A stretch of DNA of 8,534 nt, from the IMG/VR virus record IMGVR_UViG_2695420403_000017. The stretch is one strand, 5' to 3'. The position numbers were made by a program, and so were the translations under genes. The notes under the pieces were generated by a model that had not been told where the DNA came from, made no database searches, and saw nothing but the letters and a program-made list of their open reading frames with translations. This document shows, piece after piece, positions 1,958-8,534 of the stretch (its first letter is position 1; each line of letters begins with the position of its first letter). The DNA is from a virus. Taxonomy: Duplodnaviria > Heunggongvirae > Uroviricota > Caudoviricetes.

Positions 1958-4405
1958 TTAACCGTCATGCATCATGCTGGCACGGGCGCGCGCACGTTTA
2001 TCCCGCTCGTATTTTTCGAGCGCATCCTGTAACTGGCGGTCAAGCTGTGTCCCCGGCGCAGTACCCCCCGTCAGGCTGATGTGATATTCGTTTTTACTCT
2101 GGTCCACATAAGAGCGGCCAGCCGGTGCCGTGACCGGCTGATAAGCCTGATAACCTGCATAAGAGCTGGTCGCCGGAATATAACCACCGCTGCCATACGT
2201 GGCGGCTTGAGTTCTGGCGGCGGTCTGGTCAAGTGTGTCTGACTCTTTGTTGATGACACCGAGTTTTTCCAGTACCCAGTCAATACCACTGCGCAGTTTG
2301 TTGAACGCATTAAGCGGCAGCATCAGCGCGTCAGCCAGTGCCTGCCCGAACATGACGCCCGTGTCACGGCAACGGTTCAGGGTGTCCTGGGTAGCTTTGA
2401 CCGGGGCAATCAGGTTTTTAAACCACTGCCACGCGGCCTGTAACTTTTCGCCCAGCCAGTCAAACACCGGCTTAAGTGGCGTGAACAGTTCCCCCACCGG
2501 CGCAAATGCCGCTTTCAGCCCTTCCATCACACCGCCAAAGAATGCGCTGACAGGCTCCCAGTATTTACGGATAAGCAACGCCCCGGCGACAATGGTGGCC
2601 ACCACGGCCACAACCGGCCAGCTAATCGCCCCGATGGCCGTCATAACAGCACTGCCAACCGTCGTGAAGACTGCCCCCATTGCGCCTGCTGCCGCGATGA
2701 TGGCATTGATGCCGGTGATAACCGGCCAGGCTACAAGACCAATTGCACCGATGATGCCAGTCAGCGCCAGTGCGCCACCGGCAATGAGACCAATGGTTGA
2801 CGCCAGTGATTTGTTTTTCTGTATCCAGCCGTCGAGTTTTAACACATACTTTGTGGCCGTCTGCGTGAGCTTACGCAGTGCGCCTTCCTGCTGGTCAAAC
2901 AGGTCTGTCCCCACCGCCTCATAAGCGGACTGAAACTCCTTAAAGTCACCGCCGAGGTTGTCCTGCATGATATTTACCAGCTCTTCCGTTTTACCGTCCG
3001 AGGCTTTCAGCGTGGCAGTCAGCTTATCCAGTTTTCCGCTTGCTGCCGCTGCCAGTAAAACGTTCGCTGATTTCAGTGCTTCCTCACCAAAAATGGTTTT
3101 AAGGTATTCCCCCTTCTGAGACGTTCCCAGCTTGTGTTTATCAAAGCTGGCCTGAATCTCTTTCAGAATGGTGAACAACGGACGCATATTTCCCTTTTTG
3201 TCCGAGGTTTTAACGCCAAGCTCTTTTAGTGCTTCCCATGCTTTCCCTGTCGGAGCCTGTAATCGGGTGACAACGGCACTACTACCCGTACCCGCCATTG
3301 ACCCCCTGATGTTATTGTCATGCAGCACACCTGTCATGGCCGCTGCCTGCTCAAGACTTACACCTGCCGTCCTCGCAACCGGACCGAGGTAAGTCAGTGC
3401 ATCACTGAGCCCCTGAAAATCAGCCGCCGACTTATTCATCGTTGCCGACAACACATCGCCCACATGGCTGACATCATCATTTGACAGTTGAAAGGATGCC
3501 TTGGTCCCCAGCAACAGTTGCGCGTTTTCTTCCATCGACCGCTGATTCGCCAGTGCCATATTCAGCGTGACCGGCGTTGCCGCCTGAATAGCCGCAGCAT
3601 CTCCACCCGCTTTCGCAATGATAATCTGCGCACCGGCTGCATCATCCGCCGAGGCGGCTGTGTTGTCGCCGAGCTGGCGCGCCTGTTTGCGTAGCGCGGC
3701 CATTTCGGCGGAATCTTTTGCCACACCGAGCACGGCCTGCAATTCTGAGTTTTTCTGCGCAAACTCATAACCGGGCATCAGCAGCTTAACTCCGGCCATC
3801 GTTCCCGCCGCCGCAATCCCCACACCGGCAGCGCCCACCGAGGCCATATTTCCGGCCAGTTCCTTGCCTGCCTGATAACGCTGTTTGACTGCGTTAAGTT
3901 TTGCCTGTTGCGCACTGACACGCGCCAGCGCGTCACGCTGCCGGTTAAGCTGTGCGGTGGTTTCACTGATACGGTTTTTCAGCCCTCGTTCATCATGCGC
4001 CAGATTACGGGTATTAATACCCGCCTGACTCAATTCCTGACGCTGGCGCTGTACCGACAATCTCAGGCTGTTATATTTCGCCTGTAACTCAGACGCATTT
4101 TTACGCGCGGCTTCCATTGCCTTTGCCTGTGCATTTGTCGGTCGTTCAGTATTTTTAAACTGGACAGCCAGAGCTGCGGCTTCCTGTCTGGCTTTTTTCA
4201 GTTCCTGACCAGTCACGGCGAGCTGTGCACTGGTCTTGCGAAATCCCTCAATACGGGATGCCTGACCGTTCAGCTCGCGCAGTGATTTTTGTGTGTCCCG
4301 GATATCCCCCGACAGCGACTTACTCGCTGTACGGATGGATTTAAACGGGCGGGATGCCTGGTCAACAGCCCTGAGCAATACCTGTAATTTTACATTGTTA
4401 CTCAT
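1958..4405 (-). CDS. T: Tail tape measure protein gpT, 815 aa
   Basis: 815-aa ORF, the length I recall for P2 gpT. It has an N-terminal coiled-coil-like Q/R/A/L-rich region and a central Gly/Ala-rich hydrophobic block (IGLIAGGALALTGIIGAIGLVAWPVITGINAIIAAAGAMGAV...) typical of tape measure proteins. It lies directly downstream of the E/E' chaperone pair. Confidence 0.9.
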   Translation of the reverse strand: MSNNVKLQVLLRAVDQASRPFKSIRTASKSLSGDIRDTQKSLRELNGQASRIEGFRKTSAQLAVTGQELKKARQEAAALAVQFKNTERPTNAQAKAMEAARKNASELQAKYNSLRLSVQRQRQELSQAGINTRNLAHDERGLKNRISETTAQLNRQRDALARVSAQQAKLNAVKQRYQAGKELAGNMASVGAAGVGIAAAGTMAGVKLLMPGYEFAQKNSELQAVLGVAKDSAEMAALRKQARQLGDNTAASADDAAGAQIIIAKAGGDAAAIQAATPVTLNMALANQRSMEENAQLLLGTKASFQLSNDDVSHVGDVLSATMNKSAADFQGLSDALTYLGPVARTAGVSLEQAAAMTGVLHDNNIRGSMAGTGSSAVVTRLQAPTGKAWEALKELGVKTSDKKGNMRPLFTILKEIQASFDKHKLGTSQKGEYLKTIFGEEALKSANVLLAAAASGKLDKLTATLKASDGKTEELVNIMQDNLGGDFKEFQSAYEAVGTDLFDQQEGALRKLTQTATKYVLKLDGWIQKNKSLASTIGLIAGGALALTGIIGAIGLVAWPVITGINAIIAAAGAMGAVFTTVGSAVMTAIGAISWPVVAVVATIVAGALLIRKYWEPVSAFFGGVMEGLKAAFAPVGELFTPLKPVFDWLGEKLQAAWQWFKNLIAPVKATQDTLNRCRDTGVMFGQALADALMLPLNAFNKLRSGIDWVLEKLGVINKESDTLDQTAARTQAATYGSGGYIPATSSYAGYQAYQPVTAPAGRSYVDQSKNEYHISLTGGTAPGTQLDRQLQDALEKYERDKRARARASMMHDG

Positions 4406-4825
4406 TCGTGTTTCCGCTTCGCCGGAGCGCCTTTTCGCGCCATGTGATGAGTTCGGTCAGGCTCATGGGATACAGTTCTGATGGCGGCCAGTGAAATATC
4501 ACTGCCACATCCGCCATCAGGTCATCGACCGAGAGATTTTTCGGAAACGTCACTGCACCGAGTTCGGCGACAAAAAACCGACCACCTTACCGGCCAGCGC
4601 CACAAGGTCAGGCAGTTCCAGCGCGGCGACCTCCTGCTCGGTCAGCATCGGTGCCGTCATGCGCGGCAGCACTTTAATCAGTGCATCGACTTCGGAGTTT
4701 GCGACCGCAGCCAGACTGACACCGCGCAGCGTCCCCGCACTGGGTTTCATCAGCGTGACCTGTTCGATAACCTGCTCACCACGCTTGACCGGATTGTCCA
4801 GGGTAATCACATTTTCTTTGTTCAT
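4398..4825 (-). CDS. E': Tail assembly chaperone E+E', 142-aa product of a programmed -1 frameshift
   Basis: Hand translation from the slippery site in the -1 frame gives VAELGAVTFPKNLSVDDLMADVAVIFHWPPSELYPMSLTELITWREKALRRSGNTNE, stopping at TAA (complement of 4398-4400), which overlaps the T start as ATGAGTAA. 85 aa from E plus 57 aa from E' gives 142 aa, the length I recall for P2 E+E'. Confidence 0.7.
4550..4825 (-). CDS. E: Tail assembly chaperone gpE, 91 aa
   Basis: 91-aa ORF between FII and T, ending ...KVVGFLSPNSVQ, with the slippery heptamer in its last codons. Size and position match P2 gpE. Confidence 0.85.
   Translation of the reverse strand: MNKENVITLDNPVKRGEQVIEQVTLMKPSAGTLRGVSLAAVANSEVDALIKVLPRMTAPMLTEQEVAALELPDLVALAGKVVGFLSPNSVQ
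4571..4577 (-). promoter_or_regulatory. Slippery heptamer T-TTT-TTG for the E to E' -1 ribosomal frameshift
   Basis: Minus-strand sequence GGT TTT TTG TCG reads as G-F-L-S in gpE. The run of six T followed by G is the classic -1 slip site for the tail chaperone pair, analogous to lambda G/GT. Confidence 0.7.
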
Positions 4826-4881: not shown

Positions 4882-5400
4882 TCACAGGCCGATATTGCGG
4901 CGGTGTTGCTCCAGCCGGTCGACGCCGTTCACCTTCTCAATCATGTTGATGGTGTCGATTTCGACCAGCTCCTTACCGTCCATCGTCAGCCGGAAATAGG
5001 TGCAGACCACGGAGATTTTCGACTCGGTGTCTTCTCCCTGTTTACCCTCGCCGGTGTCGATTTCTTTCTGACGTCCACGCATGACCACCTCGACGGCCAC
5101 CGTTTCGCCGGTATCGTCGCGCTGGTAAGAGCCTGCAAAACGAATCGGCACGGCATCCACACCGGTTGCGGCGTAAAGCTCCCAGATAACCGAATCCGGG
5201 AAGCCACCGAGCGACCACTCCATTGACAGCGCATCGTCATCAAGGCCGAGGTCTACCGGTGCGCTGCCGTTCATCCCCGCACCGCGATAGTTTTCGAGCT
5301 TACGGGTCAGTTTTGGCAGCGTGACGGACTTTGCAACGCCCTGATAGCTGTAGCCGTTCAGAAAGACGTTCATTAACTTGAGTTTGCGCGGCATTGCCAT
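4882..5400 (-). CDS. FII: Tail tube protein gpFII, 172 aa
   Basis: 172-aa ORF directly downstream of the sheath gene, matching P2 FII in size, position and sequence as I recall it (MAMPRKLKLMNVFLNGYSYQGVAKS...). AAGGAG Shine-Dalgarno 8 nt upstream, overlapping the FI stop. Confidence 0.9.
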   Translation of the reverse strand: MAMPRKLKLMNVFLNGYSYQGVAKSVTLPKLTRKLENYRGAGMNGSAPVDLGLDDDALSMEWSLGGFPDSVIWELYAATGVDAVPIRFAGSYQRDDTGETVAVEVVMRGRQKEIDTGEGKQGEDTESKISVVCTYFRLTMDGKELVEIDTINMIEKVNGVDRLEQHRRNIGL

Positions 5401-5412
5401 CGGTCAGGCTCC

Positions 5413-6603
5413 TTAATTGCTGTTAACCGAAGTGACCAGATTTGCCAGGTATTTATCGGTAATACGCTGGCGCAGGGTCAGGTTTTCAAGAGGAGGCACC
5501 GGGGTATAGTCGTAGTCGATATACAGTTTTCCGGCCTTGAGGGTTTCCGCATCGTTGGATTCTTCGCTGAACCAGCAGGTCGCATCCACGATATAGCCGT
5601 TTGTTTTCAGTTCACGGAATTTGGCATTAATGCCGTCAACGATGTCGCGAATCAGCGTTGCGGTGATGGGCTTGTCCACCGCCCACATGTGCGCCTCAGC
5701 CATCGTGTCGGCCAGCACCTGCGCGGTGCGGGTGTAGTTTTCAAAGAGGAACAGCGGGTCATCAGAGCAGGTACGGTTACCCCAGAATCGGAAACCGTCG
5801 CGGCGAATCAGCGTAGTGACGCCTGACTCGTTAAGCAGGTCAGCATCGGTGCCGGACTCCTGCAAATCCCAGAATACAGATGCGCTGATGCCGGTAACAC
5901 CGTTCACCCCGACATTGGACAGCGTTTTATGCCAGCCCTGCTCCTGGTCGATTTTAGCGCGCAGCCCCAGCGCACGGGCGGTGGCATACGCGGTGGCGGT
6001 GGTACTGGTGACCGTATCCCATGCGAGGAAATCCGGCCAGATGACCATCAGCTCACGCTGGCTGAAATTCTGGCGGTAGGCTTTCACCTCAGAAATGGTT
6101 TTACAGCCCCATGCGCTGATATACCCGAAAGCGCGCAGCTTCTGACAGACTGATGCCAGTGCAACAGCAACCTCTTTGGTGTCCAGTCCCGGCACACCGA
6201 GAATGCGCGGTTTAACGCCGGTAACCGACTCCGCGCCCATCAGGGCTTTCAGTCCGGTGTACTGACCGTTTTCGTCGGTGGTGCCGATAATATTGGAAAC
6301 GGTCTGCGCGAGTTTCGTTTCCTCGTCGTCGCCGGTGCCGTCTTCCACACGCACGACAACGGTGACCGGTTTTGACTGGTCGGCGATGGCCTGCAACGAT
6401 GCCGCCAGCGTGCCTTTTTTACCGGCCTTTGCAATTGCGCTCTGCACATTGGTAATCAGCACCGGTTTATTGAGGGGGAAGGTTTCCGCATCCGCATCGC
6501 TGGCCGTGCAGACCATGCCGACAATGGCAGTGGATACGGTGGAAATGACGCGGGTGCCGTCGTTAATCTCCAGCACCTGCACGCCGTGATGATAGTCACT
6601 CAT
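5413..6603 (-). CDS. FI: Contractile tail sheath protein gpFI, 396 aa
   Basis: 396-aa ORF, the size I recall for P2 FI, as first gene of the FI-FII-E-T-U-D block, with recognisable sequence (MSDYHHGVQVLEINDGTRVISTVSTAIVGMV...). GGAG Shine-Dalgarno 8 nt upstream. Confidence 0.9.
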   Translation of the reverse strand: MSDYHHGVQVLEINDGTRVISTVSTAIVGMVCTASDADAETFPLNKPVLITNVQSAIAKAGKKGTLAASLQAIADQSKPVTVVVRVEDGTGDDEETKLAQTVSNIIGTTDENGQYTGLKALMGAESVTGVKPRILGVPGLDTKEVAVALASVCQKLRAFGYISAWGCKTISEVKAYRQNFSQRELMVIWPDFLAWDTVTSTTATAYATARALGLRAKIDQEQGWHKTLSNVGVNGVTGISASVFWDLQESGTDADLLNESGVTTLIRRDGFRFWGNRTCSDDPLFLFENYTRTAQVLADTMAEAHMWAVDKPITATLIRDIVDGINAKFRELKTNGYIVDATCWFSEESNDAETLKAGKLYIDYDYTPVPPLENLTLRQRITDKYLANLVTSVNSN

Positions 6604-6634
6604 CCGTTTAACTCCGTGGTTAATGGGTGAGTGG

Positions 6635-6692
6635 TATTTTCAGTTGTGCCGGAGATGTCAGGCTATTTGTCCCGGTTGGCTAAGGGATGACA
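6635..6692 (-). promoter_or_regulatory. Candidate Ogr-dependent late promoter for the FI operon
   Basis: Minus strand TGTCATCCCTTAGCCAAC (plus 6675-6692) is a 5/6 match to the TGT-N12-ACA dyad of P2/P4 late promoters. Its centre lies about 45 bp upstream of a -10-like GAAAAT/AAAATA (plus 6635-6641), placing it near -55. The element overlaps the last codons of the invertase gene. Match by eye only. Confidence 0.3.
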
Positions 6693-7256
6693 CAATTTAT
6701 TCTTTGTCGCTGATGAGGGGAATTTTTTATAGAGCGTGGACAGGCCAATATCAAAAATCAGCGCCACACGTTGACGAGATTCCCCCGCAGCCAGCAACCG
6801 TCCGACCTGCTCCCACTCACTCGCGGTGAGTTTCGGTCGTCTGCCACCAATACGACCTTTGGCTCTGGCCGCTTCCAGCCCGGCCCGAGTCCGCTCGACA
6901 ATGAGTTCTCGCTCCATTTCAGCCAGGGCACCCATCACATGAAAGAAAAAACGCCCCATCGGCGTGCTGGTATCAATAGCATCTGTCAGGCTGCGAAAAT
7001 TAACGCCGCGTTCGCGCAGCTCCTCAACCAGAATGACCAGATGCCGCATACTACGCCCCAGCCGGTCCAGCTTCCAGACTACCAGAGTGTCACCTGCTGA
7101 TAATGTTCTGAGCAGTTTTTTCAGTCCCGGTCGGTCGGACTTCGTGCCGCTGATTTTATCCTCAAAAATCCGCTCGCATCCTGCGCACTCCAGCGCGTTA
7201 CGCTGCAATTCCGTGTTCTGGTCATTTGTCGACACGCGTACATAGCCAATAAGCAT
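6663..7256 (-). CDS. Serine DNA invertase (Pin/Gin/Hin/Cin family), about 197 aa
   Basis: N-terminus MLIGYVRVSTNDQNTELQRNAL carries the catalytic serine motif, and the C-terminus has a helix-turn-helix (GLSTLYKKF), both characteristic of Gin/Pin/Hin. Start chosen at the second ATG (7254-7256), which has an AGGGGG Shine-Dalgarno 6 nt upstream and reproduces the Gin/Pin N-terminus; the track ORF starts 2 codons earlier at 7262. The gene is adjacent to, and divergent from, a tail-fibre variable cassette. Confidence 0.85.
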   Translation of the reverse strand: MLIGYVRVSTNDQNTELQRNALECAGCERIFEDKISGTKSDRPGLKKLLRTLSAGDTLVVWKLDRLGRSMRHLVILVEELRERGVNFRSLTDAIDTSTPMGRFFFHVMGALAEMERELIVERTRAGLEAARAKGRIGGRRPKLTASEWEQVGRLLAAGESRQRVALIFDIGLSTLYKKFPSSATKNKLCHPLANRDK

Positions 7257-7283
7257 GAGCATCCCCCTGAATAAAAACCGGAG

Positions 7284-7781
7284 ATGATGCCACTTGCCCG
7301 TTATCTCTGCATTTTCATAAACGTTGGTTTGGGAGAAGGTGCTCCAGCTATTGGCGTTCCGTTCTTCTGGCCGTCCGCTGCAATGCCAAATACCGTAATC
7401 GACAGCTGGTCCAGTATGGTGTTTTTGAAGTTCAACGGGGTGAAATTTTCTGCCTCTGATTACCCTGTGCTGGCAAAAGTGTTTCCTTCGCTGGTATTAC
7501 CTGAAGCCCGCGGTGATTTCATTCGTATCTGGGATGATGGGCGAGGGGCGGACAGTGGGCGAGCATTATTAAGCTGGCAGGCAGCAACATCTTTATCGCA
7601 ATTTGGCGGTAATTATCCAGAAGGGTCCGGCCATGCGATTGCTGATTACGATGGAATATCAGCACACCAGCCAGGTTTCTCTCGATTTCAGTACACCAGT
7701 AACTCAGTAGGAGATGGTGTTAATTTTATTGCCGTCAGACCACGTAACATTGCATTTAACTTTCTGGTGAGGGCTAAATAA
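7284..7781 (+). CDS. Tail-fibre C-terminal variable cassette (Sv'-like), promoterless and probably in the silent orientation; functional frame likely begins at the crossover site near 7312
   Basis: The ORF has no credible start: GGAG abuts the first ATG with 0-3 nt spacing. Its frame runs through the candidate crossover site, and its stop overlaps the start of a downstream assembly gene (TAATG). It is divergent from and adjacent to the invertase, as in e14 stfE-pinE and the Mu G segment. The fibre-tip assignment rests on this architecture, not on recognised sequence. Confidence 0.6.
   Translation: MMPLARYLCIFINVGLGEGAPAIGVPFFWPSAAMPNTVIDSWSSMVFLKFNGVKFSASDYPVLAKVFPSLVLPEARGDFIRIWDDGRGADSGRALLSWQAATSLSQFGGNYPEGSGHAIADYDGISAHQPGFSRFQYTSNSVGDGVNFIAVRPRNIAFNFLVRAK
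7312..7337 (+). promoter_or_regulatory. Candidate 26-bp recombination crossover site (gix/hix/pix-like)
   Basis: TTTTCATAAACG-TT-GGTTTGGGAGAA has two imperfect inverted half-sites around a central dinucleotide, with the AAAC..GGTTT core and terminal TT/AA of hix/gix sites (about 16-18 of 26 against the sites as I recall them). It lies about 55 bp upstream of the invertase start and inside the fibre cassette reading frame, where constant and variable fibre parts join in Mu, P1 and e14. Confidence 0.45.
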
Positions 7782-8374
7782 TGAAACCTGTTTTTGATGA
7801 AAATGGACTGGCTACAGTGCCGGGTGATATGCGTTGTTTTTATTATGATGCAGTAACGTATGAATATACGGGCTGGTCTGATGAATATATTAATACTGGT
7901 GTAAGTATGCCCGCCTGTTCCACTGGTATTGACCCGGGCGAAAACATTCCGGGAAAAGTGGCAGTATTTACAGGTAAGGGATGGAGCCATGAAGAAGACC
8001 ATCGCAATGAGACTGTTTACTCAATCGAAAATGGTGCTGCTGTTACAGTGGATTATATCGGTGCCATCAAAAACGGTTATGTCACGCTTTCACCGTTAAC
8101 GCCATATGATAAATGGGATGGTGAGAAATGGGTGACAGATACTGAGGCACAACACGGTGCCGCAGTAGAAGCGGCAGAAGCACAGCGCCAGTCACTGATT
8201 GATGCAGCAATGGCTTCCATTAGTCCGATTCAGCTGAAATTACAGGCCGGGCGGAAACTGACGCAGGCAGAAACAACCCGGCTTAACGCTGTGCTGGATT
8301 ACATTGACGCGGTGACGGCAACAGATACCAGCACCGCGCCGGATGTCATCTGGCCTGAACTGCCGGAGGCGTAG
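7781..8374 (+). CDS. Tail fibre assembly protein (Tfa/gpG/Mu U family), 197 aa
   Basis: 197-aa ORF coupled to the fibre cassette, with the Tfa-like C-terminal motif ...[16 protein letters not shown]. It converges on a second Tfa-like gene on the opposite strand. Confidence 0.75.
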
Positions 8375-8534
8375 GCCATTCAATATCGGGTGCTGTTGAC
8401 GTATCAACACGCATCAGCAGCACACGGTATTTCTTCCATTGGGTGAGAGTTGTAGCTTCTTCATCAGTTGCGATATCAGCATCAACAGCATCCTGACGCC
8501 AGGATATTTCACTGTCAGCTTTTTCCCGTAATTG
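8346..8534 (-). CDS. Tail fibre assembly protein, second copy (3' portion only; 5' end beyond the window)
   Basis: Hand translation of the minus strand from the window edge gives ...[53 protein letters not shown], with stop TGA at the complement of 8346-8348. It shares the DTSTAPD(I/V)xWP motif with the plus-strand copy. The ORF is open to the window edge and absent from the ORF track because it is truncated. Confidence 0.6.

Follow-up and report, generated by a model that had tools for sequence, protein, structure and literature searches.

What controls the F operon of a P2-type prophage when a serine DNA invertase gene ends only 59 bp upstream of its first gene, FI? The question is raised by a stretch of 8,534 nucleotides (hereafter the window; IMG/VR record IMGVR_UViG_2695420403_000017) which, according to its open reading frames and their database matches, is the late region of such a prophage (Table 1). 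A first-pass annotation of this DNA had proposed that an Ogr-type late promoter precedes FI and overlaps the 3′ end of the invertase gene. From sequence comparison, we consider it very probable that the pF late promoter of the prophage occupies the region 6604-6700 (minus strand), where binding of Ogr would lead to transcription of the genes from FI to D. The anatomy of this promoter and its homology to P2 are seen directly in the sequence; its Ogr dependence and transcript start would carry over from P2.

Results

A P2-type late region with an invertase gene upstream of FI

The Ogr protein encoded in the window is identical to that of P2 at all positions (72/72 residues, 100%). The promoter region lies 24-100 nt upstream of FI, which is followed by FII, E/E′, T, U and D to form the late morphogenetic operon. 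Two overlapping reading frames (4550-4825 and 4398-4553, minus strand) are arranged as P2 E and E+E′, where a -1 frameshift links the two frames, the usual arrangement of tail-chaperone genes.

On the other side of the junction, the invertase contains a Resolvase domain (residues 3-135) and an HTH_7 domain (residues 138-181) according to Pfam, and its residues 1-182 align with Mu Gin (E = 4e-94). Its longest reading frame starts at the ATG at 7262 (MLMLIGY), which is directly abutted by an AGGGGG Shine-Dalgarno sequence, and the coding sequence in the phage S164 record has the corresponding length of 199 codons. However, when the protein is aligned with Gin, Pin and Cin, the ATG at 7256 (MLIGY) comes out as the likelier start. 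To the right of the invertase, the oppositely oriented tail-fibre genes (7284-8374) probably make up one flank of a segment that can invert like the G segment of Mu or the C segment of P1. A short distance before the invertase start, at 7312-7337 (minus strand), TTCTCCCAAACCAACGTTTATGAAAA resembles a 26-bp crossover site of the gix/cix/hix type, in which a central AA is flanked by two imperfect half-sites. This sequence overlaps the 5′ end of the reading frame 7284-7781 on the plus strand. The partner of this candidate site would lie beyond the right end of the window. Inverted repeats in 6600-8534 were limited to short, chance-like pairs.

Table 1. Coordinates of the features of the window (position 1 is its first nucleotide).
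Feature	Position	Strand	Remarks
ogr	1-219	minus	Zinc-finger late activator, cognate; Pfam Ogr_Delta, E = 1e-21
D	301-1464	minus	ORF list, database matches
U	1464-1943	minus	ORF list, database matches
T	1958-4405	minus	ORF list, database matches
E/E′	4398-4825	minus	ORF list, database matches
FII	4882-5400	minus	ORF list, database matches
FI	5413-6603	minus	Tail-sheath gene, first gene of the F operon; ORF list, database matches
Shine-Dalgarno sequence of FI	6612-6615	minus	GGAG; read from sequence
Predicted F-operon transcript start	6627-6629	minus	CAC; by homology to P2 17626-17628, flanks identical
-10 element	6635-6640	minus	AAAATA; -12 to -7 from the P2-mapped start
Invertase stop codon	6663-6665	minus	TAG; within the conserved promoter block ACAAATAGC, about -42 to -34
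Serine DNA invertase	6663-7256	minus	Longer ORF from 7262; Pfam Resolvase and HTH_7
Putative activator (Ogr) binding region	6672-6700	minus	ATAAATTGTGTCATCCCTTAGCCAACCGG; aligned to P2 17555-17583
Core partial dyad TTGT-N12-CCAAC	6675-6695	minus	TGT 6694-6692, CCA 6679-6677
TGT-N12-AAC of the first-pass annotation	6675-6692	minus	2 nt off the conserved register
Alternative tail-fibre C-terminus	7284-7781	plus	Right of the invertase
Tail-fibre assembly gene	7781-8374	plus	Right of the tail-fibre C-terminus ORF

The junction is near-identical to P2 pF

On the coding (minus) strand the junction reads ...AAA TTG TGT CAT CCC TTA GCC AAC CGG GAC AAA TAG CCTGACATCTCCGGCACAACTGAAAATACCACTCACCCATTAACCACGGAGTTAAACGG ATG. 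The 59 bp between the two genes (6604-6662) are found as first described, between the invertase TAG (6665-6663) and the FI ATG (6603-6601). From 6683 to 6601 the window is identical to phage P2 at 82 of 83 bases, a stretch that spans the right half-site, the ACAAATAGC block, the -10 element, the start context, the leader and the Shine-Dalgarno sequence. This alignment with the P2 region upstream of FI was the test that the first-pass annotation had itself suggested; the near-identity, which begins at about -55 and extends as far as the FI ATG, and the identical Ogr bear out its proposal of an Ogr-type late promoter overlapping the invertase 3′ end. The P2 record (NC_001895) annotates an 'activator binding site; activation of pF promoter' at 17555-17583 and a 'transcription start site for F operon' at 17626-17628, with FI at 17652. 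The start predicted from the latter lies 24-26 nt upstream of the FI ATG in the window. The GGAG that precedes FI is invariant among the four sequences aligned (the window, P2, P37 and S164), and falls in the most conserved block of a 130-sequence alignment.

The four P2 late promoters have the motif TGT-N12-ACA in common, and each of them requires the zinc-finger activator Ogr (PMC3931495). An exact TGT-N12-ACA is absent from the window. The TGT-N12-CCA present in its pF region is a variant of this consensus, and CCA is also found in P2 pF and pO. All three sites can be read in this common register: GGTTGTG...CCAACC in P2 pF, TGTTGTGTCA...CCATCC in P2 pO and AATTGTGTCA...CCAACC in the window. 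The centre of the TGT-N12-CCA dyad is placed about 57.5 bp upstream of the predicted start (-57.5), and TTGT-N12-CCAAC has a single exact match in the whole window. The left half TTGTGTCA also matches many other pF promoters. Further upstream than TTGTG the two phages differ, P2 having a hairpin with a T-run and the window invertase codons.

The first-pass annotation had based its promoter on a TGT-N12-AAC dyad at 6692-6675, within the last invertase codons (K-L-C-H-P-L-A-N) and 45 bp from a -10-like GAAAAT (6641-6636). All these elements are where it placed them, and the dyad is the only match of this pattern in the window. However, chance alone would yield 4.2 matches per window, and at least one occurs in 196 of 200 shuffled sequences, so that the pattern alone is not evidence for a promoter. 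The bare motif, with TGT-N12-AAC at chance level and TGT-N12-ACA absent, was therefore discarded as an argument and homology was used instead. A site of the TGT-N12 type does exist here, but its register is most likely TGT-N12-CCA (6694-6677) rather than TGT-N12-AAC.

A sigma-70 scan of 6300-7500 found no two-hexamer promoter, and there is no -35 consensus; this is expected of an activator-dependent promoter devoid of a -35 element. No Rfam family was matched, and folding of the RNA across the junction gave nothing stable (z-score -0.36). The ACAAATAGC block is common to P2 and most relatives. At 6662-6670 in the window, and recurring in the fetched loci L005-L164, it is among the best-conserved parts of pF across genera; it corresponds to neither the dyad nor a -35 consensus, provides the invertase stop codon, and is perhaps a candidate contact for the polymerase or the activator.

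Conservation of the activator site among related loci

We fetched 160 loci that encode FI relatives, taken from viral contigs and from genomes (one for each species), and compared the DNA upstream of FI. Of 130 non-redundant pF regions, drawn from many Enterobacterales, 105 combined TGT-N12-NCA with a -10 of the form xAxAAT, a count which, as the loci are phylogenetically linked, overstates the independent support, as do the others drawn from this set. In 103 of these 105 regions, 56-58 nt separated the T of the TGT from that of the -10 AAT (58 in both the window and P2), and the right half CCAAC of the window was also the commonest one (60/105). With a weight matrix derived solely from the 114 pF regions free of an invertase, the score was 30.1 bits for the window site and 32.3 for that of P2, the median being 32.0. 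The intact geometry of the motif and its normal score indicate a complete and typical site, and not a half-site cut by an insertion. A truncation of the half-site by insertion at 6683 was accordingly rejected, the left half being canonical.

One base departs from the usual pattern. The position before TTGT is an A in the window (6696) and a G in about 86% of the non-redundant relatives, and P2 pF, pO and pV all carry the G. The resulting AATTGT is confined to this invertase-linked E. coli class and was seen in every such copy examined. The A is not forced by coding, since AAA and AAG are synonymous for the invertase. As judged from the base preferences of the site, it could weaken the activation of pF by Ogr.

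Several of the fetched loci call for separate mention. In L085 (1-140, at the contig start, Escherichia sp. MOD1-EC7003), similarity to P2 and to the window sets in at AGCCAACC and not before: at this contig end, unrelated sequence takes the place of the left half-site TTGT. This could mark another recombination breakpoint, within the activator site, or simply the edge of the assembly. Four enterobacterial P2-type FI loci (L089, L091, L095 and L158; protein identity 81-91%) come from assemblies labelled Chryseobacterium sp., Vagococcus sp. and Sporobacter termitidis (MAG), labels most likely due to contamination or mis-binning rather than to real hosts.

The invertase reading frame crosses the activator site

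The invertase has no stop codon of its own before pF: its reading frame crosses the complete activator site, which the last ~11 codons overlap, and ends at the TAG. The last six codons, L-A-N-R-D-K, and the stop are DNA shared with the P2 promoter. Counted from MLIGY, the protein has 197 residues, against 193 for Gin, 186 for Cin and 184 for Pin. The first-pass impression that it was 10-15 residues longer than Pin and Gin thus suits Pin (13 more residues), and also Cin (11), but not Gin (4).

An invertase gene or a remnant of one was found directly upstream of FI in 26 of the fetched loci, the window included. Among them are copies in Siccibacter, Scandinavium, Kluyvera and Pseudocitrobacter, and in all of these the reading frame crosses the activator site. 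The way in which it does so varies. The reading phase is TTG TGT CAT in the window and GTT GTG xCA in other loci; the spacer between the FP codons and the TGT is 14, 22, 23 or 41 nt; the stop is TAG, TGA or TAA, inside TGACAAATAG or its variant GCATAAATAG; and the tail peptides are unrelated between loci, for example KNKLCHPLANRDK, ATNPVVSDTAEP and AGVSAAPVVPSLSQP. By comparison, the DNA motif keeps a near-constant distance of 89-91 nt to the FI ATG across the invertase-linked loci. Phase and peptide vary while this distance holds, as expected if the constraint comes from the promoter and not from the protein. The overlap is probably an incidental, if widespread, by-product of tight packing.

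A natural deletion is found in L008 (IMGVR_UViG_2565956620_000001, 2786-3000), where only the last 50 invertase codons are left and the activator site, the -10 element and FI are intact. The tail-fibre genes H and G of this locus are in one fixed orientation. The deletion froze the tail-fibre switch and kept the promoter-bearing end of the invertase gene.

The arrangement is common. At a coverage of at least 80%, the 201-nt junction comprising the invertase 3′ end, pF and the FI start was found in 603 of 5426 complete E. coli genomes, where its flanking genes are annotated as 'recombinase family protein' and 'phage tail sheath protein'. Strain S56 (NZ_CP010242), for example, carries a 100% match. 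The junction also occurs in deposited phage records, among them S164, pro483 and a P2-like phage from O157:H43. As to whether pro483 or its relatives form virions, no relevant paper was among the titles listed. As to its origin, the first-pass annotation had suggested that the invertase was inserted against the promoter. The overlap is real, but the arrangement is old and common to several genera, and a direction of insertion is not assignable.

Terminators upstream of FI

The loci were screened for a terminator-like hairpin with a T-run behind it whose end falls 85-150 nt ahead of the FI ATG. Such a structure was present in 102 of 122 non-redundant invertase-free loci and in 0 of 20 invertase-linked ones. 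In P2 and its close relatives it has the form GGCGGGC...GCCCGCC TTTTCTTT. In the window, scanned both as a whole and over 6300-7500, there is no terminator-like site in the 59-bp gap, and from the invertase start to FI the scan gave three weak intragenic matches only; window-wide, such sites are at chance level (10 found, 8.9 expected). The lack of a terminator between the invertase and FI makes read-through plausible, and invertase transcripts may plausibly continue into FI, as the first-pass annotation had also considered.

The P2 record annotates a 'terminator for ogr transcript and F operon', F-operon transcripts continuing through ogr. The low constitutive transcription of the invertase in a lysogen might therefore leak through FI-D into ogr and provide basal Ogr for pF, in a weak positive feedback. 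We regard this loop as unlikely. If it were true, tail-fibre switching would be coupled to the priming of late genes or to spontaneous tail production, and about a tenth of E. coli genomes would differ from P2 in this regulation.

Discussion

Our results support the view that the invertase gene of this prophage ends on top of a complete pF promoter. By analogy with P2, Ogr would bind the partial dyad TTGT-N12-CCAAC, centred near -57, and would recruit the sigma-70 RNA polymerase, through its alpha subunit, to a promoter that has a -10 element (AAAATA) and no -35. The contact between Ogr and the polymerase alpha subunit is known from the P2 literature. Transcription would then proceed from about 6628 through FI, FII, E/E′, T, U and D.

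Could pF instead have been crippled when the invertase module replaced its upstream part, the F operon now being served mainly by read-through from an invertase promoter or from the late V-W-J-I-H-G operon? The lack of a terminator-like hairpin before the site in all 20 invertase-linked loci, against its presence in 102 of 122 invertase-free ones, the absence of any between the invertase and FI in the window, the replacement of a usually conserved G by A before TTGT in the invertase-linked class alone, and the break of P2 homology inside the site, at 6683, are all in keeping with this. However, neither half-site is damaged, and the spacing between them, the -10 element and its distance from the site are all preserved; the site scores within about 2 bits of that of P2, and its left half equals that of P2 pO. 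Moreover, the motif has been kept in diverged invertase-linked lineages and even in the deletion remnant L008. We therefore hold a crippled promoter to be quite improbable. As for the register of the site, the dyad of P2 late promoters is classically centred at about -55, and the TGT (6692-6690)-N12-AAC (6677-6675) dyad, which is present and whose centre is at -55.5, comes slightly nearer to this value than the P2-aligned register. But P2 pF itself reads TGC-N12-AAC at these positions, the base matching 6690 is not conserved in the relatives, and the invariant TGT of P2 pF, pO and pV and of 105 relatives lies 2 nt upstream; added to the chance frequency of the bare pattern, this makes recognition of that dyad by Ogr very unlikely.

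The sequence under the site might also have been kept for the sake of the protein, the C-terminal extension of the invertase serving for instance in DNA binding or regulation, and KNKLCHPLANRDK is indeed nearly invariant among the E. coli copies. Yet these copies are close relatives, the other genera have another phase, another length and an unrelated peptide over an unchanged DNA motif, Pin and Cin end 4-6 residues past the conserved FP, and Pfam HTH_7 stops at residue 181. A functional tail is thus, to our mind, extremely improbable, and the reading that we retain is that of an intact, presumably Ogr-dependent pF promoter lying under the end of the invertase gene.

The locus is an ortholog of the well-characterised P2 pF promoter and as such belongs to ordinary biology; that pF underlies the end of the invertase gene and lacks an upstream terminator is a minor, widespread architectural twist, and nothing here would surprise a P2 specialist. 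The practical gain is for annotation, as pF, its start and its activator site can now be placed in a prophage type found in ~11% of complete E. coli genomes, and the overlap explains why the invertase reading frame is longer than those of Pin or Cin. The junction is also a clean and small example of a coding sequence laid over a promoter, in which the promoter sets the constraint while the phase and the peptide drift. Finally, the consistent loss of the upstream terminator raises the modest question of a transcriptional coupling between the invertase and the tail operon.

DNA invertases are often reported at the Z/fun hotspot of P2-like phages (bioRxiv 10.1101/2024.10.15.618418), and invertible tail-fibre loci have been reported in P2-like prophages of EPEC (PMC4272514); the passages of these two sources that we retrieved make no mention of an overlap with pF or of a missing terminator. 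The invertase of the window occupies the same position as this variable hotspot, between the tail-fibre assembly gene G and FI.

The closest known counterpart of the site is P2 pF, with which it shares the left half TTGTG, at the same spacing upstream of 6683, the -10, the start context, the leader, the Shine-Dalgarno sequence and the downstream operon, under an identical Ogr. The differences lie in the 7-nt spacer after TTGTG, unlike that of P2 at 5 of 7 positions, in the A (6696) that replaces the G of P2 before TTGT, and in the surroundings: P2 has a terminator-like hairpin with its T-run directly upstream of the site and the opposite-strand Z/fun gene beyond, whereas the site of the window lies inside the invertase coding sequence, without a terminator. 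The activator site shared by P2 pO and pP (3057-3087) has a left half identical to that of the window and, in the same TGT-N12-CCA register, a right half made of CCA followed by C-rich sequence; however, it drives the head and lysis operons divergently, and the promoter sequence downstream of it is unrelated. The invertase itself compares with Gin, Pin and Cin of Mu, e14 and P1, to which it is 76-86% identical and whose genes likewise adjoin oppositely oriented tail-fibre and assembly genes. The records of Mu, e14 and P1 annotate no late promoter under the end of the invertase gene, whereas the invertase of the window runs 4-13 residues further than Gin, Pin and Cin, into pF.
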